From the NCBI RefSeq assembly GCF_056712565.1, contig NZ_CM160072.1: a stretch of DNA of 64,000 bases; one strand, written 5' to 3'. The notes under the pieces are model-generated. The model did no database searches and was not told where the DNA came from. It was given only the letters and a program-made list of their open reading frames with translations. The position numbers and the translations under genes are program-made. Positions 3,012-25,998 of the stretch are shown here, one piece after another; the first letter of the stretch is position 1; each line of letters opens with the position of its first letter.

Positions 3012-3353
3012 ATGGCAATTAATGGCGCTGCAGCAACTGTTCCATTAAGCCCCGGTGAACGCCTGAATGGACTTAATCACATTGCGGAGTTAAGGGCGAA
3101 AGTTTTTGGCCTGAATATTGAGTCAGAGCTTGAGCAGTTTATTAAAGATATGCGTGATCCACGGGATATCAATAATGAACAAAATAAACGGGCACTGGCT
3201 GCCATATTCTTTATGGCAAAAATTCCAGCTGAACGTCATAGCATCAGCATTAATGAGCTGACCACTGACGAAAAGCGGGAGCTGATTAAAGCAATGAATC
3301 ATTTTCGTGCAGTGGTGAGCTTATTTCCCAGACGGCTAACCATGCCGAATTAA
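3012..3353 (+). CDS. Hypothetical early protein (113 aa)
   Basis: ORF in early operon, same strand. Confidence 0.5.
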   Translation: MAINGAAATVPLSPGERLNGLNHIAELRAKVFGLNIESELEQFIKDMRDPRDINNEQNKRALAAIFFMAKIPAERHSISINELTTDEKRELIKAMNHFRAVVSLFPRRLTMPN

Positions 3354-3881: not shown

Positions 3882-4735
3882 GCACCATCCTGAAATGGGC
3901 GGGAAATAAAACCGCCATTATGTCCGAACTGAAAAAGCATCTTCCTGCTGGCCCGCGACTGGTTGAACCTTTCGCGGGTTCCTGTGCAGTGATGATGGAG
4001 ACGGAGTACCCCAGCTATCTTGTTGCGGATATTAATCCTGATTTAATCAACCTCTATAAAAAGGTTGCTGCTGATTGTGAATCGTTTATATCTCGCGCCA
4101 GAGTTTTATTTGAGATCGCAAACAGGGAGGTGGCTTATTACAACATAAGGAAGGAGTTTAATTACTCAACTGAAATTACTGATTTCATGAAAGCGGTATA
4201 TTTCCTGTATCTCAATCGTCACGGTTACCGTGGTTTATGTCGCTATAACAAGAGCGGGCATTTCAACATTCCCTACGGCAATTATAAAAATCCGTATTTC
4301 CCTGAAAAAGAAATTCGCGCATTTGCAGAAAAAGCCCAGCGAGCAACGTTTATCTGCGCCAGCTTTGATGAAACGCTGGCGATGTTGAAGGCGGGGGATG
4401 TGGTGTATTGCGATCCACCGTATGACGGTACGTTTTCCGGCTATCACACTGACGGCTTCACTGAAGATGACCAGTATCACCTGGCATCTGTTCTTGAACA
4501 TCGGTCATCAGAAGGACATCCGGTCATTGTTTCTAACAGTGACACATCCCTGATCCGTTCGCTGTATCGCAATTTTACTCACCACTATATCAAGGTAAAA
4601 CGCATCATCGGTGTGGCAGCTGGCGAGGGTAAATCAGCAACAGAAATCATTGCTGTTTCCGGGCCGCGCTGCTGGGTGGGATTTGATTATTCGCGTGGCG
4701 TGGATAGTTCTGCCGTGTACGGAGTACGTGCATGA
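3878..4735 (+). CDS. dam: DNA adenine methyltransferase (Dam-like N6-adenine MTase), prophage-encoded
   Basis: N-terminal SAM-binding region KWAGNK...EPFAGS and catalytic DPPY motif (VYCDPPYDG); start ATG 3878 after GGAG. Confidence 0.85.
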
Positions 4736-7146
4736 GCCATGCCGATATGAACAACTGCTGCGGCTTTAACGAGGCTGCCGCAGCGTTCTCATGGAACAGC
4801 CCGAAAAAGGCCATTAACCCTTATCTGGACCCGGCGGAAGTTGCGCCGGTTTCTGCGCTTTCAAACCTGATCACTCTGTACGCTGCCGATAACGAGCAGG
4901 AACAGTTGCGCCGCGAGGCACTGAGTGATCAGGTCTGGGAGCGTTATTTTTTTAATGAATCACGTGATCCTGTCCAGCACGAAATGGAGCAGGATAAGCT
5001 CATTAGCCGGGCAAAGCTGGCGCATGAGCAGCAGCGTTTTAATCCGGATATGGTCATTCTGGCGGACGTCAACGCCCAGCCTTCCCATATCAGCAAGCCG
5101 CTGATGCAACGTATTGAATACTTCAGCAGCCTGGGCAGGCCAAAGGCTTATTCCCGCTATTTACGTGAGACGATTAAGCCATGTCTGGAACGACTGGAGC
5201 ATGTACGCGACAGCCAGCTATCTGCATCTTTTCGTTTTATGGCAAGCCATGTAGGGCTGGACGGCCTGCTGATTCTGCCTGAAATGAGTCAGGATCAGGT
5301 GAAACGCCTGTCTACCCTTGTCGCTGCGCATATGAGCATGTGCCTTGATGCAGCTTGTGGTGATTTGTATGCCACCGATGACGTTAAGCCAGAAGAAATC
5401 CGCAAGACATGGGAAAAGGTGGCAGCGGAAACCCTGCGTCTGGATGTCATCCCGCCTGCGTTTGAGCAACTCCGTCGGAAAAGAAACCGCCGTAAACCCG
5501 TGCCCTATGAACTCATTCCGGGTTCGCTGGCGCGTATGTTGTGCGCCGACTGGTGGTACCGGAAATTATGGAAAATGCGTTGCGAATGGCGGGAAGAGCA
5601 GTTGCGTGCTGTCTGCCTGGTCAGCAAAAAAGCATCTCCCTATGTCAGCTATGAAGCCGTGATGCATAAACGTGAGCAGCGCCGCAAGTCACTGGAGTTT
5701 TTCCGTTCTCATGAACTGGTGAACGAAGAGGGCGACACGCTGGATATGGAAGACGTGGTAAACGCCAGCAGCAGCAACCCGGCGCACCGCCGCAATGAGA
5801 TGATGGCCTGTGTTAAAGGTCTGGAGCTTATCGCGGAAATGCGCGGTGACTGCGCCGTTTTCTACACCATTACCTGTCCGTCACGTTTCCATTCCACGCT
5901 CAATAACGGCAGACCAAACCCAACCTGGACAAATGCGACGGTAAGACAAAGCAGCGATTATCTGGTCGGCATGTTTGCTGCATTTCGTAAGGCGATGCAC
6001 AAAGCCGGGTTGCGCTGGTATGGCGTGCGGGTGGCTGAGCCGCATCATGACGGTACAGTTCACTGGCACCTGTTGTGTTTTATGCGCAAAAAAGACCGCC
6101 GCGCCATTACTGCATTGTTGCGTAAGTTTGCCATCCGTGAAGACCGCGAGGAACTGGGTAATAACACTGGTCCACGCTTTAAATCTGAGCTGATAAACCC
6201 GCGCAAAGGAACGCCGACAAGCTACATCGCGAAATACATCAGTAAGAACATTGACGGGCGTGGTCTGGCTGGCGAGATCAGCAAGGAAACGGGTAAATCC
6301 CTGCGTGATAACGCTGAATACGTTAATGCCTGGGCGTCTCTGCATCGTGTTCAGCAATTCCGCTTCTTTGGTATTCCAGGGCGTCAGGCTTACCGTGAAC
6401 TGCGGTTGTTGGCTGGTCAGGCGGCAAGGCAGCAGGGTGACAAAAAAGCAGGTGCGCCGGTACTGGATAACCCGCGCCTTGATGCCATCCTGGCTGCTGC
6501 TGATGCTGGCTGTTTTGCCACCTACATTATGAGGCAGGGCGGCGTGCTGGTTCCTCGCAAATATCACTTGATCAGAACCGCTTATGAAATCAATGAAGAG
6601 CCGACCGCCTATGGCGATCACGGTATTCGTATTTATGGCATCTGGTCACCCATTGCAGAAGGCAAGATCTGCACTCATGCAGTGAAGTGGAAAATGGTTC
6701 GTAAAGCCGTTGACGTTCAGGAGGCGGCAGCCGACCAGGGCGCTTGCGCCCCTTGGACTCGTGGCAATAACTGTCCCCTTGCTGAAAATTTGAACCAACA
6801 AGGGAAAGACAAATCAGCTGATGGGGATACCAGGACGGACATTACCCGCATGGATGACAAGGAGTTGCACGATTACCTGCACAGTATGAGCAAAAAAGAG
6901 CGCCGGGAACTGGCTGCAAGGTTACGCCTGGTGAAACCGAAACGGCGTAAAGACTACAAACAGCGAATTATAGACCATCAGCGACAGCAGCTCGTCTATG
7001 AACTGAAGTCCAGAGGATTTAATGGCAGCGAGAAAGAGGTCGATTTACTCCTTCGCGGCGGCAGTATTCCGTCAGGAGCAGGCCTGCGTATCTTCTATCG
7101 GAACCAGCGTTTGCAGGAAGATGATAAGTGGCGAAACCTGTATTAA
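4732..7146 (+). CDS. A: Replication initiation endonuclease gpA (rolling-circle, P2 A family)
   Basis: 804-aa ORF downstream of the early operon; HxH (VHWHLL) and tyrosine-rich nicking region; synteny with P2/186 gene A. Confidence 0.85.
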
Positions 7147-16996: not shown

Positions 16997-17390
16997 GGCG
17001 GTGCCTTATGTCCGCAATAACCCGGACAAACTGCATCTGTTTGTGGATAACGGTTCGCTGGTTGCCACGGGGGCCAGCTCCATGTCATGGGAGTACCGCT
17101 ACACCCTGAACGTGGTGATTGAGGATTTCAGCGGCGACCAGAATCTGCTGATGGCCCCGGTTTTGCTGTGGCTGCGGGATAACCAGCCCGATGCCATCAA
17201 TAATCCGGCGTTACGGGAAAAGTTATTCACCTTTGAGGTGGATATTCTGCGCAACGATGTCTGTGATATCAGCCTTAACCTGCAACTGACGGAGCGTGTG
17301 CTGGTCAGCACTGACGGCAGTGTGTCGAGCGTTGAAGCTATAGCGGAACCTGATGAACCTGAAGAAATGTGGACGGTGAAACGTGGCTGA
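16938..17390 (+). CDS. R: Tail completion protein gpR (start uncertain, TTG 16938 or GTG 16959)
   Basis: KPQSLRHALNKAV resembles P2 gpR N-terminus; synteny. Confidence 0.7.
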   Translation: MRVRSETVNKPQSLRHALNKAVPYVRNNPDKLHLFVDNGSLVATGASSMSWEYRYTLNVVIEDFSGDQNLLMAPVLLWLRDNQPDAINNPALREKLFTFEVDILRNDVCDISLNLQLTERVLVSTDGSVSSVEAIAEPDEPEEMWTVKRG

Positions 17391-17820
17391 ACTGCAGAAG
17401 GTGGATGAGTGGCTGGCGGCCTTGCTGGCGAATCTGGAGCCTGCCACACGCCAGCGTATGATGCGGGAACTGGCGCAGGAGTTGCGCCGCAATCAGCAGA
17501 AGAATATCAGGCTGCAGCTTAACCCTGATGGCAGCGGCTTTGAGCCGCGCCGGGTAGCAGCCCGCAGTAAGAAGGGGCGCATCAAACGCCAGATGTTCGC
17601 CAAATTGCGCACTAATAAATACCTGAAAACTGCCGCCACAGCGGATTATGCCTGCGTGTATTTTGATGGAAAAGTCCAGCGCATCGCCTGTGTACACCAC
17701 TATGGACTGCGTGACCGTGTTAGTCGAAGAGGTTTAAAAGTACAGTACCCTGAGAGAAGGCTTTTAGGATTTACTAAGGATATTAGTAACTTGAACTTGG
17801 GTGTTTACTTAAAACGCTAA
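17383..17820 (+). CDS. S: Tail completion protein gpS; last ~20 codons run into AT-rich cargo DNA
   Basis: Synteny after R; 3' end from about 17760 is AT-rich and continuous with the cargo island. Confidence 0.75.
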   Translation: MAELQKVDEWLAALLANLEPATRQRMMRELAQELRRNQQKNIRLQLNPDGSGFEPRRVAARSKKGRIKRQMFAKLRTNKYLKTAATADYACVYFDGKVQRIACVHHYGLRDRVSRRGLKVQYPERRLLGFTKDISNLNLGVYLKR

Positions 17821-17909
17821 AGTAAATAGTGGGTTAAGAGAATTAGTGGAGGGAGACTTTATCGTTCTACATAAGATACCTTGCTTGAATATACTATAAA
17901 GCTCTTTTT

Positions 17910-17938
17910 TTGAGATTAATCTTGTTGTACTTTAATGT
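17910..17938 (+). promoter_or_regulatory. Putative sigma70 promoter for the OLD-like gene
   Basis: TTGAGA - 17 bp - TAATGT upstream of ATG 17966. Confidence 0.3.
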
Positions 17939-17965
17939 CTTCACCTCACTAATGGAGCTAATTTT

Positions 17966-19924
17966 ATGATAGTAGGGATTTTTTTAAGGTATTTTAAAAC
18001 ATACAACGGAAATCATTACATACCGTTATCTTCTGGAAGTCAGTTTTGTGGAATTGTTGGTAACAATGGAATTGGCAAAAGTTCTGTTCTTGAGGCTTTA
18101 GATTCGTTTATTAATAACAAACCATGGAATATTAATTCTTCATTTAAAAGAACCTCCAGTGACAGACCTTCTCCACATATTGTTCCTTTATATCTTATAA
18201 AGCGAGAGGAATTACATGAAGATCATCATGCTAAAGCTGAAATCTTAACGCAATTAGTATTAGAATATAGCAATAGTAATGCTGATGTTACATTGACGCC
18301 AACAACACGAAATATAATTAATACGTTTTTTGAACATATTAACAAATTAAAAAGAAATTTAAATCTCCAAGATTATTTTTTGATCCCTCTGGGTGTCGAG
18401 AAAGATGGTGATGTAAGTATTTCGATTCTTAATGGGAAGAGTTTATGTCGACTTTTGGAGGTTGATAATCCCGATAATAAAGTTTCGAGCGAGTTGCTTA
18501 GTAAGCACTTTGGGTATTTATTACATCATGTCCGCCATAAGTATGAATATATATATATTCCAAAGGATATAGACTCTGAATCGTTTACGAAGCTAGAAAC
18601 AAGTGAAGTACAAAAGTTGATGGGTGAGTCTTTAGAGCAGATAATTAAAGATAGAATATCTGATAGAACCATAAGTCAAATCAATACAGGGCTTGCCAAA
18701 TTTCTGGATGGTGTTGAAGAGGAGCTTGAAGAATATGGTTATAGAACATCTGGCGAGAGACAATCGCGATTAAAAAAGAAAGATGTTTATAATTTGATTA
18801 TCGAAGCATTCTTCAAAGTTAGGAAATTAAATAAAAAGCAGAATTCAGGTTGGATTGAAATTAGCTCGCTAAGTTCAGGGGAGAAGCAACGTGCAATAAT
18901 GGATATTGCATATGGGTTTCTTACCAATCATAGAGAAAATGGCGATAATCTGATTATTGGAATTGATGAGCCAGAATGTTCTCTTCATATGTCTGCATGT
19001 TTTGAACAATTTGAAAAGCTCTATTCTATTAGTGGTATATGTGAACAATTAATATTTACTTCACATTGGTATGGCTATCTTCCAACCGTCGAAAATGGAT
19101 GTACCACAACTATCCTTAAAACAGATTCAACTCATCATTTTGAATTATATGATCTTGCCAGTTATAGAGAAGAAGTCAGGAAGAAAGTAAAAACCTCTTC
19201 CCCGGGTATGCCATTTGATATAAAAATAAAAAGTGTAAATGACCTTATACAATCCATAATATCTAGCTGTTTGGCTGAGAAACCTTACAATTGGTTGATT
19301 TGTGAGGGTACTACAGAAAAAATATATCTTTCGCATTATCTAAAGGACTTGGTAGAAAATAAAAGGCTAAGGATTGTGCCTGTAGGGGGAGCTAGTGAAG
19401 TTAAAAAAATATTTAAGCATTTAGAAGCTTCTTATGAAGAGTTCAAAAAAGACCTCAAAGGAAAAGTGTTCTTACTAACCGATACAGATTCAGAGTTGGT
19501 GTCATATGATACCCCAGTTATGCCGCATGTTGTTTGTAAGCGAATTGTTAGTGTAGGTGATTCAGTGAAGTTGGTTGATATTTCTTCCAATCCAGTTTCT
19601 CCTGCAACAGAAATAGAGGATTGTCTTAATCCTGTATCGTTTATAGAGGCTTTAACATCATTTTCTTCACGTTTTCCTGAGCTTCAGGCATTGCTGCCTA
19701 ATAGTAATGTTATGATAGATGAAAGACATTCATCGTTTGCTGCGATGGATTTGTCACCCAAGAACAAAAAAACGCTTGATGCTTTTTTTGACCGTGAAGG
19801 AATTAAGTTTGATTTTTCAAAGGAATATATTTCAATCTGTGAGCGAAATGAGCGGAAAAGGCCAGAGTGGATTGCCAAAATTGAAAATTTTTTTATAAGT
19901 GATAAACCTGTAAAGTTTAATTGA
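17966..19924 (+). CDS. OLD-family ATP-dependent nuclease (ABC ATPase + TOPRIM), 652 aa; accessory defence-type cargo
   Basis: Walker A GNNGIGKSS, ABC signature LSSGEKQ, Walker B LIIGIDEPE, H-loop FTSHW; C-terminal TOPRIM-like WLICEGTTE and LLTDTDSE; same motif layout as host YbjD in this window; AT-rich. Confidence 0.85.
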   Translation: MIVGIFLRYFKTYNGNHYIPLSSGSQFCGIVGNNGIGKSSVLEALDSFINNKPWNINSSFKRTSSDRPSPHIVPLYLIKREELHEDHHAKAEILTQLVLEYSNSNADVTLTPTTRNIINTFFEHINKLKRNLNLQDYFLIPLGVEKDGDVSISILNGKSLCRLLEVDNPDNKVSSELLSKHFGYLLHHVRHKYEYIYIPKDIDSESFTKLETSEVQKLMGESLEQIIKDRISDRTISQINTGLAKFLDGVEEELEEYGYRTSGERQSRLKKKDVYNLIIEAFFKVRKLNKKQNSGWIEISSLSSGEKQRAIMDIAYGFLTNHRENGDNLIIGIDEPECSLHMSACFEQFEKLYSISGICEQLIFTSHWYGYLPTVENGCTTTILKTDSTHHFELYDLASYREEVRKKVKTSSPGMPFDIKIKSVNDLIQSIISSCLAEKPYNWLICEGTTEKIYLSHYLKDLVENKRLRIVPVGGASEVKKIFKHLEASYEEFKKDLKGKVFLLTDTDSELVSYDTPVMPHVVCKRIVSVGDSVKLVDISSNPVSPATEIEDCLNPVSFIEALTSFSSRFPELQALLPNSNVMIDERHSSFAAMDLSPKNKKTLDAFFDREGIKFDFSKEYISICERNERKRPEWIAKIENFFISDKPVKFN

Positions 19925-19931
19925 TAAATGG

Positions 19932-19951
19932 TCGCAGGGGAAACCCTGCGA
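19932..19951 (+). terminator. Terminator-like hairpin after OLD-like gene
   Basis: TCGCAGGG-GAAA-CCCTGCGA (GNRA-type loop) 8 bp after the stop; weak T-tract. Confidence 0.45.
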
Positions 19952-19958
19952 TATTCTA

Positions 19959-20006
19959 CTAACCTCTAACCTCTAACCTCTAACCTCTAACCTCTAACCT
20001 CTAACC
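19959..20006. repeat. Heptanucleotide tandem repeat (CTAACCT) x ~6.9
   Basis: Six perfect CTAACCT units plus CTAACC read directly from the sequence; intergenic between cargo gene and V promoter. Confidence 0.95.
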
Positions 20007-20034
20007 AGAGGGTTTATTTCTTTTCAAAGAAAAT

Positions 20035-20052
20035 TGTATCTTCTTTTATACA
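20035..20052 (+). promoter_or_regulatory. Putative Ogr-dependent late promoter element upstream of V
   Basis: TGT-N12-ACA dyad (TGTatcttcttttatACA), the conserved activator site of P2 late promoters; P2 has a late promoter before V. Confidence 0.5.
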
Positions 20053-20099
20053 AAATAAGCTGTTTGAAGAGGTTGTGTAAAGCATGGAAAAATAATCTT

Positions 20100-20678
20100 A
20101 TGAATACACAACTCACAGAAATCATGCGCCTTATCACCAACCTGATCCGCACAGGGGTAGTCACTGAAGTGGACAAGGAAAACTGGCTTTGTCGGGTGAA
20201 AACGGGCGACCTTGAAACCAACTGGATTAACTGGCTGACGCTGCGCGCGGGTAATGCCCGCACATGGTGGCGACCATCGGAAGGTGAGCAGGTGGTGCTG
20301 CTGAGTCTGGGAGGAAATCTGGAAACCGCCTTTGCGCTGCCCGCTGTCTATTCGAATCAGTTCGCACCACCGTCGACGTCGGCGGAAGCCTGCGTGACAG
20401 AACATCCTGACGGTGGCTGGTTTGAATACGAACCAGCCACCGGGCGCTGGTATGTCAGGGGCATCAAATCCATGGTCATTGAGGCTGCTGACAACATCAC
20501 CCTGAAAACCAGAGAGTTTGTGCTGGAGGCTGACCGCACGCGTATTAACAGCGAAGTAGTGATCAATGGTGGTGTTACCCAGGGCGGCGGTGCAATGAGT
20601 TCTAACGGAATTGTGGTTGATGCACATCAGCATACTGGCGTCCTGAAAGGCGGCGACACAACCGGAGGCCCGGTATGA
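20100..20678 (+). CDS. V: Baseplate spike protein gpV
   Basis: N-terminus and WWRPSEGEQV region resemble P2 gpV; synteny. Confidence 0.85.
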   Translation: MNTQLTEIMRLITNLIRTGVVTEVDKENWLCRVKTGDLETNWINWLTLRAGNARTWWRPSEGEQVVLLSLGGNLETAFALPAVYSNQFAPPSTSAEACVTEHPDGGWFEYEPATGRWYVRGIKSMVIEAADNITLKTREFVLEADRTRINSEVVINGGVTQGGGAMSSNGIVVDAHQHTGVLKGGDTTGGPV

Positions 20679-23931: not shown

Positions 23932-24375
23932 ATGGAAATGGTTTATAGCGCCTCAAATAATAGTTTTTTCGCTAAAAATGATGTGGCGAAATATGAACAG
24001 GCCGGATGGGAACTTGCTGATATTGTCGAAGTGACATATGACACTTACCTGGAATTTATTGAAGACAGAACGTTGCAAGGGAAAGTACGCATCGCGGGTG
24101 ATGATGGCCTTCCCACCTGGGGGGAAATTCCACCGCCAACTCATGAGGAACAAATTGCCGCAGCCGAACTGGAAAAGCAGCAATTGATTAATCAGGTCAA
24201 CGAATACATATACAGTAAGCAATGGCCTGGTAAAGCAGCGATTGGTCGCCTGAAAGGTGAGGAACTGGCGCAATATAATTTGTGGCTGGATTATCTGGAC
24301 GCACTGGAACTGGTTGATACCTCCAGTGCTCCAGATATTGAATGGCCTACGCCTCCGGCAGTTCAGGCCAGATGA
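23932..24375 (+). CDS. Tail fibre assembly protein (orientation-1 copy)
   Basis: 147 aa ending ...DIEWPTPPAVQAR, like Tfa chaperones; follows H. Confidence 0.75.
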   Translation: MEMVYSASNNSFFAKNDVAKYEQAGWELADIVEVTYDTYLEFIEDRTLQGKVRIAGDDGLPTWGEIPPPTHEEQIAAAELEKQQLINQVNEYIYSKQWPGKAAIGRLKGEELAQYNLWLDYLDALELVDTSSAPDIEWPTPPAVQAR

Positions 24376-24949
24376 CGTCCGGCGCTGTGCTGGTATCTGT
24401 TGCCGTCACCGCATCAATGTAATCCAGCACAGCGTTAAGTCGGGTGTTTTCTGTCTGCGTCAGCTTCCGCCCGGCCTGCAATTTCAGTTGAATCAGACTA
24501 ATGGAAGCCATTGCAGTATCAATCAGTGACTGACGCTGTGCTTCTGCCGCGTCTAGTGTGGCGCTATGCTGTGCCTCAGTATCTGTCACCCATTTCTCAC
24601 CATCCCATTCATCGTATGGCGTTAACGGGGCGATAGTGGTTGTATTTTCAGGGTAATCACCTGGTGCTGTGATTTCTTTTGATTCTCCTGTTTCGGTGCT
24701 AAAAACGATTTCACCGCGATGGTCTGGCACATATTCCCATGAGTTAAAATCTGCAGAACGGCAGATTGCATAACCAGCTTTACATGTAACTGGTGAATCT
24801 AAACAGGAATATGCAGGGATACCGACACCAATGGCAAGATATTCATTTGAAGTAGAAATATATTCCCGAGTTTTACCATCATAGTTATAGACGGTAATAT
24901 TCCCCGCCTTCGTGGCAATAATCTCGCTATTTAATACGGCGTTATCCAT
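24347..24949 (-). CDS. Tail fibre assembly protein (alternative, orientation-2 copy)
   Basis: 200 aa; C-terminus ...APDVIWPELPEA mirrors the other Tfa; opposite strand inside invertible segment. Confidence 0.7.
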   Translation of the reverse strand: MDNAVLNSEIIATKAGNITVYNYDGKTREYISTSNEYLAIGVGIPAYSCLDSPVTCKAGYAICRSADFNSWEYVPDHRGEIVFSTETGESKEITAPGDYPENTTTIAPLTPYDEWDGEKWVTDTEAQHSATLDAAEAQRQSLIDTAMASISLIQLKLQAGRKLTQTENTRLNAVLDYIDAVTATDTSTAPDVIWPELPEA

Positions 24950-25404
24950 TATGCAGCCCTTACGATATAGTTAAATGCAATATTTCGTGGACGGGTTTCG
25001 CTTCCGCCATATGATGATGTAAATCCCGAATATGCCCGGTGTCCCGCATCCGTCGTATTAGCCCAGGAAGGACCGCTAGAAGTATAGATGACCCCATTGT
25101 AATCATGGCCGTGTGCCTCAATGCTCCCGTCCTGAGCAGACAGGAGAGTCCGTCCTGAATCAATTCCTCTTCCATCATCCCACCCACGAATGAATTCGCC
25201 GCGTAAATCTGGCAATTTATTTGTCGGATAAACTTTTGCCAGTTCCGGATACTCTTCGGCAGAAAAAGCTGCACCGTTGCATTTCAGCCAGCCTGTTGGC
25301 GGTGTGACTGAAGGCCACGGAACAGGCACACCTACGGGTAATGCAGAGCCTTCTCCTAAACCAACGTTTAAGAAAATGCAGCGATTACGACTAACTGGCA
25401 TCAT
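24949..25404 (-). CDS. Alternative tail-fibre C-terminal variable segment (expressed after inversion)
   Basis: 151-aa minus-strand ORF; shares GLGE junction with H at the crossover site. Confidence 0.7.
   Translation of the reverse strand: MMPVSRNRCIFLNVGLGEGSALPVGVPVPWPSVTPPTGWLKCNGAAFSAEEYPELAKVYPTNKLPDLRGEFIRGWDDGRGIDSGRTLLSAQDGSIEAHGHDYNGVIYTSSGPSWANTTDAGHRAYSGFTSSYGGSETRPRNIAFNYIVRAA
25351..25376. other. Inversion crossover site (gix/hix-like), right
   Basis: TTCTCCTAAACCAACGTTTAAGAAAA; inverted repeat of the site at 23560; adjacent to invertase gene. Confidence 0.6.
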
Positions 25405-25431
25405 CCCCGGTTTTTATTCAAGGAGATGATC

Positions 25432-25998
25432 ATGCTTATTGGCTATGTACGCGTGTCAACAAATGACCAGAACACCGATTTGCAACGTAGTGCGCTGAAC
25501 TGCGCGGGATGTGAGCGGATTTTTGAGGACAAAATCAGTGGCACTAAGTCCGACAGACCGGGGCTTAAAAAACTGCTCAGGACACTATCGGCAGGTGACA
25601 CACTGGTTGTCTGGAAGCTGGACAGGTTGGGGCGCAGTATGCGGCATCTTGTTACGCTGATAGAAGAGTTGCGCCAGCGCGGCGTGAATTTCCGAAGTCT
25701 GACTGACAGTATTGATACCAGTACCCCAATGGGCAGTTTCTTTTTTCATGTCATGGGTGCCCTGGCTGAAATGGAACGCGAACTGATAGTTGAACGTACC
25801 AGGGCAGGGCTGGCTGCAGCTCGTGCTAAAGGCAGAGTAGGTGGACGCCGTCCTAAGTTGACTACCGAACAGTGGGCACAGATTGGGCGTTTACTCGAGG
25901 CCGGAGAATCAAGACAGCGTATTGCACTGATTTTTGATGTAGGCGTTTCTACCATTTATAGAAAATTTCCGGCAAATAAGAGCAATGAATCTCCCTGA
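25432..25998 (+). CDS. Serine DNA invertase (Gin/Pin/Hin family)
   Basis: MLIGYVRVSTNDQNTDLQR...VVWKLDRLGRSM... nearly collinear with Mu Gin as I recall it; catalytic Ser in YVRVST; AGGAG RBS. Confidence 0.9.
   Translation: MLIGYVRVSTNDQNTDLQRSALNCAGCERIFEDKISGTKSDRPGLKKLLRTLSAGDTLVVWKLDRLGRSMRHLVTLIEELRQRGVNFRSLTDSIDTSTPMGSFFFHVMGALAEMERELIVERTRAGLAAARAKGRVGGRRPKLTTEQWAQIGRLLEAGESRQRIALIFDVGVSTIYRKFPANKSNESP

Follow-up and report, generated by a model that had tools for sequence, protein, structure and literature searches.

A hypermutable CTAACCT repeat between an OLD-family cargo gene and the late gene V promoter of a P2-like Escherichia coli prophage: probably a tolerated product of slippage

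Why does a perfect run of CTAACCT heptamers stand between a cargo gene and the late promoter of gene V in a P2-like prophage, and does the number of its units matter? We addressed this question in a window of 64,000 nucleotides from contig NZ_CM160072.1 (NCBI RefSeq assembly GCF_056712565.1), the window being the whole stretch of DNA that was analysed. The window was 100% identical to E. coli SF-468 (NZ_CP012625.1, reverse strand) over both compared stretches (601 and 2,279 bases). The annotated region is a P2-like prophage, in which the genes run in the order capsid, terminase, X, holin, lysozyme, lysB/C, R, S, cargo, V, W, J, I, H; the Pfam domain Phage_tail_S was found in orthologous loci. 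The features around the array are collected in Table 1. Elsewhere in the same prophage (around 23987-25998 of the window; locus L001, 10288-12299), a gene annotated as a recombinase family protein lies beside a truncated fragment and two tail-fibre assembly genes of opposite orientation, which looks like an invertible tail-fibre (host-range) segment.

Table 1. Features of the S–V interval and its flanks, in window coordinates.
Feature	Coordinates	Strand	Characteristics
P2 gpS-type virion morphogenesis gene S	17383..17820	+	GC 0.52; left backbone flank; annotated in NZ_CP012625.1
Sigma-70-like promoter candidate for the cargo gene	17866..17895	+	TCTACA-18-TATACT, 9/12; consensus scan
Cargo gene, 652-aa OLD-family ABC-type ATPase with TOPRIM nuclease	17966..19924	+	GC 0.34, AT-rich; Pfam
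Hairpin 1	19931..19952	+	9-bp GC-rich stem, GAAA loop, just past the cargo stop codon; RNA fold
(CTAACCT)x6.86 VNTR	19959-20006	+	Perfect, G-free, hypermutable heptanucleotide repeat; RNA predicted unpaired
Hairpin 2	19998..20011	+	CCUCU-AACC-AGAGG; 5' arm and loop formed by the last 1.3 repeat units; terminator scan, MFE/centroid fold
U-rich tract GUUUAUUUCUUUU	20012..20024	+	Directly 3' of hairpin 2
Third small inverted repeat, UUUCUU-UUCA-AAGAAA	20017..20032	+	6 predicted pairs; between the U-rich tract and the pV dyad
pV activator (Ogr/B-type) dyad TGTATCTTCTTTTATACA	20036..20053	+	TGT-N12-ACA; centre 55.5 nt before the V ATG
Baseplate spike gene V	20100..20678	+	ATG at 20100; CDS annotation

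Direct reading of the array gave six full CTAACCT units followed by CTAACC. Tandem Repeats Finder agreed (period 7, 6.9 copies, 100% matches, no indels, score 96, consensus CTAACCT) and identified it as the only strong array of the window, the runner-up scoring 46. The double unit CTAACCTCTAACCT, allowing up to two mismatches, occurs six times in the window, always inside the array; 0.15 occurrences were expected from dinucleotide-preserving shuffles and none of 100 shuffles reached six. The sequence-only reading of this locus, which had described six exact units plus a partial one lying directly after the cargo terminator and about 30 bp before the dyad, is thus borne out, with measured gaps of 6 nt from hairpin 1 to the array and 29 nt from the array to the dyad. 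The V ATG follows 93 nt after the array, with the promoter in between. As TAA recurs at 7-nt intervals on one strand of the array, and TAG likewise on the other strand, any array of at least three units has stops in all six frames, so that the gain or loss of units alters spacing only; the same reading had placed the array outside genes and expected a change in spacing rather than in frame, and this holds. An Rfam scan returned only a chance-level match (E 0.67), and a string search of the literature for the 14-mer double unit did not find it in any of the papers searched. DNA curvature and H-DNA were dismissed on reasoning, as AA steps every 7 bp cancel over 21 bp and there is no mirror repeat.

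The gene upstream of the array is AT-rich and horizontally acquired. GC content is 32–35% across the module (17821-20099), against 52–55% in S and V. Its protein matches the Pfam families AAA_15 (E 2e-17), AAA_21 and OLD-like_TOPRIM (E 2e-6), and gives partial matches to the AriA and Old models of PADLOC. The cargo is present in 13 of 5,426 complete E. coli genomes, in the S–V position every time, and the exact protein is listed in at least 1040 assembly-collection blocks. The carriers include several isolates of blood, CSF or avian origin; among deposited phages, the cargo was found in none. Sigma-70-like sites such as the one listed for the cargo gene are no commoner in the region than in shuffled sequence. 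In E. coli APEC 16-1068 (locus L002, 1268-3225), the OLD-family cargo is split into CDSs of 417 nt and 1545 nt, which is consistent with a 1-nt frameshift that would inactivate the gene; this strain keeps the repeat, at 7.86 units, despite the split.

We then compared array length among carriers. The survey covered 16 fully spanned loci, namely the 13 complete E. coli genomes, one viral contig and two metagenome contigs; the short-read contigs L166 and L175, which break off within an array, are uninformative. Six alleles were observed, spanning 4.86 to 9.86 units in whole-unit steps with identical immediate flanks: 4.86 units in metagenome contig L168 (OOCB01030547.1), 5.86 in five genomes, 6.86 in one genome (SF-468) and viral contig L024, 7.86 in two genomes and metagenome contig L167, 8.86 in two genomes and 9.86 in three. 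Eight loci with no SNP across 6,400 bp of flanks had five different lengths between them, and two dog isolates one SNP apart differed by one unit. The CTAACCT array is therefore a true hypermutable VNTR, in which whole units are gained and lost much faster than the flanks are substituted. The sequence-only reading had proposed a VNTR that could be recognized by comparing copy number across related prophages, and this comparison upholds it. Every E. coli allele is perfect, which indicates ongoing slippage. An assembly artefact is unlikely, since arrays of up to 69 bp fit within single reads and two clone-mates agree. All consecutive unit numbers are represented, so there is no preference for a helical phase. 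No allele shorter than 4.86 units was seen among the 16 loci, and left-flank pattern scans for short ancestral alleles in metagenome and viral contigs returned only 3 + 1 loci, again with a minimum of 4.86. Looking up the exact protein added no further E. coli alleles, as its 25 contigs collapsed to one place. The contig with this shortest allele ends on one side in an Illumina adapter (GATCGGAAGAGCACACGTCTGAACTCCAGTCAC...) and is a raw short-read assembly product; both flanks of its array are intact.

The position of the array relative to the two transcription units was examined next. In the P2 RefSeq record, the start site of the V operon coincides with the start coordinate of the V CDS, and the activator site lies at -69 to -42. 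By homology, the V mRNA of this prophage would be leaderless, with the pV start at ATG 20100. The distance of about 55 nt from dyad to ATG is identical in P2, Fels-2, 500465-1, Cartapus and SEN8. On the P2 annotation, and counted from the inferred pV start, the array occupies -141 to -94 and hence lies upstream of everything annotated for pV. The 55-nt distance also stays constant across cargo variants (window 20036-20100; loci L162-L165 and L315), and every cargo module comes with a pV dyad and core promoter of its own sequence, so that the promoter is swapped along with the cargo. On the minus strand, an antisense sigma-70-like site (20081-20052; TTTACA-18-TATTTT, 9/12) is aimed at the array and the 3' end of the cargo gene; sites of this type are not above their count in shuffles.

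On the RNA level, the array lies between two predicted hairpins of different quality. Hairpin 1 was not called by a simple terminator scan: its stem is strong, and because its tail (AUAUUCUA) is poor in U we read it as a putative imperfect intrinsic terminator or a 3'-end stabiliser. Hairpin 2 was called by the same scan (5 bp, 3 GC pairs, then GUUUAUUUCU), though it is weak. The plus-strand RNA of the array stretch folds better than shuffles (z -3.1) with the array itself predicted to be unpaired, while folding of the minus-strand RNA is no better than that of shuffles (z -0.58).

Homologues of the cargo gene show which parts of this arrangement are kept. A 91%-identical cargo, found in a Cronobacter sakazakii prophage and two viral contigs, has a hexamer (CCTCTG) array at the orthologous spot, with about 8, 13.8 and 14.8 units. 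This Cronobacter type shares hairpin 1, the TAACCT lead-in, the downstream TATTTC-TTTCAAAG and the dyad with the E. coli locus, and the third inverted repeat is partly conserved in it. In the centroid fold predicted for its RNA, hairpin 1 again precedes an unpaired array, and the last CCTCTG unit supplies the 5' arm of a second hairpin. The E. coli (CCTCT-AA) and Cronobacter (CCTCT-G) units have only CCTCT in common. More distant relatives have no array: before V, cargo at 84% identity is followed by a 29-nt CT-rich spacer and cargo at 77% and 59% identity by one plain hairpin, and in Pantoea cargo at 73–75% identity is chromosomal, with neither hairpin nor array. The relatives that lie before V at 84%, 77% and 59% identity indicate that the module works without an array.

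We also asked how common such arrays are where other cargo occupies the same site. Of the 80 closest V-containing viral loci surveyed, 76 have both S and V. Of these, 47 are empty, with an 81-nt spacer, and the remaining 29 represent 27 distinct cargo regions of 565–2,282 bp. Tandem Repeats Finder detected a tandem array in only one of the 27, the one with the OLD-family cargo, and none in the other 26; no comparable array was present at the left cargo boundary or in the rest of the prophage in the window. The array is specific to one defence-cargo lineage and not general to cargo junctions. The locus shares with the P2 orf30 or S–V 'moron' site an insertion between S and V, AT-rich non-essential cargo and a dyad about 55 nt before the V ATG, whereas P2 itself and the 26 other cargo variants have no tandem array there. 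The P2 hotspot papers make no mention of tandem repeats, orf30 or gpV.

Considering these observations together, we regard the array as probably, on balance, a heptanucleotide microsatellite generated by slippage, a tolerated and near-neutral by-product of the module's terminator region, and not a switch, a binding array or a recombination site. Slipped-strand mispairing would add or remove whole 7-bp units. The seed was probably the 5' arm and loop of a small terminator-like hairpin, with the proto-sequence AACCTCT-AACC-AGAGGGTT. As AACC occurs twice in this proto-sequence at an offset of 7 nt, mispairing would duplicate exactly one unit and recreate the arm. Both flanking hairpins are preserved in every allele, and in the two lineages the unit corresponds to the 5' arm (plus loop) of hairpin 2. 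That the last unit is the hairpin 2 arm in both suggests that the array arose by multiplication of that arm, and the Cronobacter unit would differ because its hairpin arm differs (CCTCTGAT). From this anatomy, each allele would regenerate the arm of hairpin 2, leaving both hairpins intact, so that expansion is tolerated. Since the array is upstream of all pV annotation and past the cargo stop codon, its length would alter only an unstructured, G-free spacer between the hairpins, and the array would contribute at most as a spacer or as unstructured RNA.

This microsatellite interpretation has precedent. Heptameric SSRs are reported to be over-represented in bacteria (Mrazek et al, 2007, cited in PMC4692102), and an explanation by polymerase slippage has been put forward (PMC4692102). 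The features of long bacterial SSRs and VNTRs of the class used for MLVA typing, namely perfect 7-bp intergenic units, whole-unit changes between near-identical strains and a purity that implies slippage, are all found in the CTAACCT array. It differs from the usual VNTRs in lying in the cargo module of a P2-like prophage, in having an end unit that forms a hairpin arm and in having a sister lineage with a 6-bp unit. Four observations run against near-neutrality. First, arrays with different units occupy the orthologous position in two lineages, which is unexpected for a neutral tract prone to deletion. Second, the shortest of the 16 fully spanned loci still has 4.86 units. Third, the array has rut-like properties, including the longest G-free run and the second-ranked C>G window. 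Fourth, G-free CTAA heptamer arrays are about 10-fold more frequent in viral contigs than a permuted control, hinting at selection on the class.

The first three of these observations make a role in Rho loading or termination possible. In the strongest competing explanation, which we nevertheless consider rather unlikely, the array would be part of a tunable terminator or insulator: its RNA would load Rho in the manner of a rut site and offer alternative arms to hairpin 2, with copy number setting the efficiency. Such an element might, with the same reservation, act together with the two hairpins to keep transcription that arrives from the O operon upstream, and from the constitutively expressed cargo gene, out of the late V operon; pV transcripts would begin downstream of the array and, again tentatively, be unaffected. 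At rut sites, Rho loads onto untranslated, unstructured, C-rich and G-poor RNA of some 60–80 nt. By sequence and folding criteria, the array stretch fits this description: it lies past the stop codon, has stops in all frames and would therefore be untranslated, and is predicted to be unpaired; neither strand of the window has a G-free run longer than its 57 nt, and the 78-nt window at the array (27 C, 6 G) ranks second among C>G windows on the plus strand. Array lengths of 34–69 nt in E. coli and about 50–90 nt in Cronobacter are within the range that Rho needs. A poor U-tract after hairpin 1 and a hairpin 2 that is weak but then runs into GUUUAUUUCUUUU would suit such an arrangement, and the layout of hairpin, array, hairpin and U-tract is kept in the Cronobacter type despite its different unit. 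However, relatives with 84–59% identical cargo have a single hairpin and no array. Moreover, a survey of 106 further loci of this heptamer revealed no strand bias, the C-rich strand being co-sense in 30 and antisense in 37, and read-through RNA would be untranslated at the leaderless V start and thus exposed to Rho without any special site. A fuller version of the insulator hypothesis is more doubtful still. It holds that a tract conserved in position, whose unit can vary (7 bp in E. coli and 6 bp in Cronobacter) while the CCUCU core and the hairpin–array–hairpin layout are retained, might be a length-tunable, Rho-loading terminator insulator with which lysogens would stochastically vary the leak of defence-gene transcription into the leaderless late tail operon, or the formation of the 3' end of the defence mRNA.

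An array this close to a promoter dyad (29 nt from that of pV) also brings to mind a contingency locus acting as a rheostat, in which length would modulate the expression of the late V operon or of the cargo defence gene. The hypermutability of the locus fits this idea, and so does the comparison with Haemophilus influenzae, where a 7-bp SSR in the promoter/5' region of hmw1A and hmw2A is reported to modulate expression (Dawid et al, 1999, in PMC2651432). The same source (PMC2651432) describes SSRs of 7, 8 or 9 nt at the same regulatory place in different strains, which is paralleled by the different unit lengths at the same position in our two sister lineages, and the two systems also share a 7-bp intergenic unit that is pyrimidine-rich and G-free on one strand and varies in copy number. 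However, the hmw repeats as described in this source are in the promoter/5' region of the gene that they regulate, whereas the CTAACCT array comes after the stop codon of the upstream gene and hairpin 1 and precedes, at -141 to -94, the activator site of the downstream gene. It is neither in an ORF, nor between a -35 and a -10 element, nor between a promoter and the regulated start codon. As the alleles show no phase preference and related modules have no array, we consider a rheostat improbable, and the earlier suggestion that slippage acts through the spacing of the late promoter is weakened accordingly.

The same heptamer proved to be widespread outside this prophage. Arrays of at least three CTAACCT units were found in 28 contigs of viruses and at least 120 of bacteria, the latter from Bacteroidota, Planctomycetota, Clostridia, Cyanobacteria and others, with 8–13 or more loci in some MAGs. 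At every CTAACCT locus tested, the array lies between long ORFs, as judged by a simple ORF heuristic. As controls in viral contigs, (CTAATCC)3 gave 41 matches and the composition-matched permutation (CACTCTA)3 gave 3. Counts of 28 and 41 against 3 place CTAACCT in an abundant class of stop-containing, G-free heptamer arrays, which argues against a binding protein specific to E. coli or P2. The regular direct repeats at a cargo boundary could have pointed to a protein-binding array or to a recombination or docking site for cargo exchange at the S–V junction, and we rate both as very improbable. With a period of 7 bp, which is off the helical repeat, and with the same or near-identical heptamers intergenic in many unrelated phyla, a protein-binding array is unlikely; the orthologous Cronobacter array, moreover, differs in both unit and period. 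The idea of a recombination scar or docking site for cargo acquisition, which had been offered for this locus together with a search for the repeat at other cargo junctions, was rejected once that search found an array in only one of 27 cargo regions, with none in the other 26, in the empty sites, at the left boundary or in the rest of the prophage.

Several further observations concern this class of repeats. G-free CTAA heptamer arrays are spread across phyla in genome contigs (loci L042-L161) and viral contigs (L014-L041 and L191-L231). Seen along the CTAA strand, they abut a gene boundary at their 3' side (median distance 28 nt, as opposed to 117 nt at the 5' side; paired Wilcoxon p 4e-4). 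Many begin right past the stop codon of a gene that runs in the AGGTTAG direction, and (CTAATCC)3 arrays have the same asymmetry. One family of Bacteroidota prophages (L016, L017, L021, L025/L026, L028 at 3265-3327 on the minus strand, L029 at 4147-4853, and L089 of Mucilaginibacter gossypii), identified by a ClpP-type head protease and a structural protein related to Flavobacterium and Bacteroides phages, carries CTAACCT and CTAACCG variants. Here the array fills the whole spacer from a 782-aa virion structural gene to the ATG of a highly conserved 79-aa ORF (MDIQIANTLFDEGIF...), which has no Shine-Dalgarno sequence, and ranges from about 10 units up to about 100 (L029). The family had no DNA match among deposited phages. 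Direct repeats of another heptamer, TAACTGA, are known from intergenic regions of Beggiatoaceae, Cyanobacteria and Bacteroidetes (MacGregor, 2015, PMC4679880); each genome has many such loci, most of them a few nt ahead of a start codon (PMC4679880). Like (CTAACCT)n, these are stop-containing heptamer direct repeats that are strictly intergenic and scattered over distant phyla. In contrast to them, the E. coli array stands at one place in the window, in a 3' region well before the V ATG, and a start codon is abutted only in the Bacteroidota prophage family.

Finally, there is a very slim chance that the CCUCU units, which are close to the 16S 3' end (ACCUCCU), act at the RNA level as a multivalent anti-Shine-Dalgarno mimic that would pair with AGAGG or GGAGG as a sponge or a 3'-UTR-derived regulator, as CCTCT is the sole part common to the E. 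coli and Cronobacter units and the array RNA is predicted to be single-stranded, but the place of CCTCT in the 5' arm of hairpin 2 accounts for its conservation just as well, and the scan for Rfam families gave none.

Overall, the array is a fast-evolving marker in a prophage common in extra-intestinal E. coli and could resolve strains that are otherwise identical, a use of modest practical value. The repeat does not belong to the mechanism of cargo exchange at the S–V hotspot. The locus illustrates that a module built around a defence gene can bring along a 3' region prone to slippage. If it were true that the array tunes termination between a constitutive defence gene and a late operon, a temperate phage would provide a rare example of a contingency element that targets transcriptional insulation.
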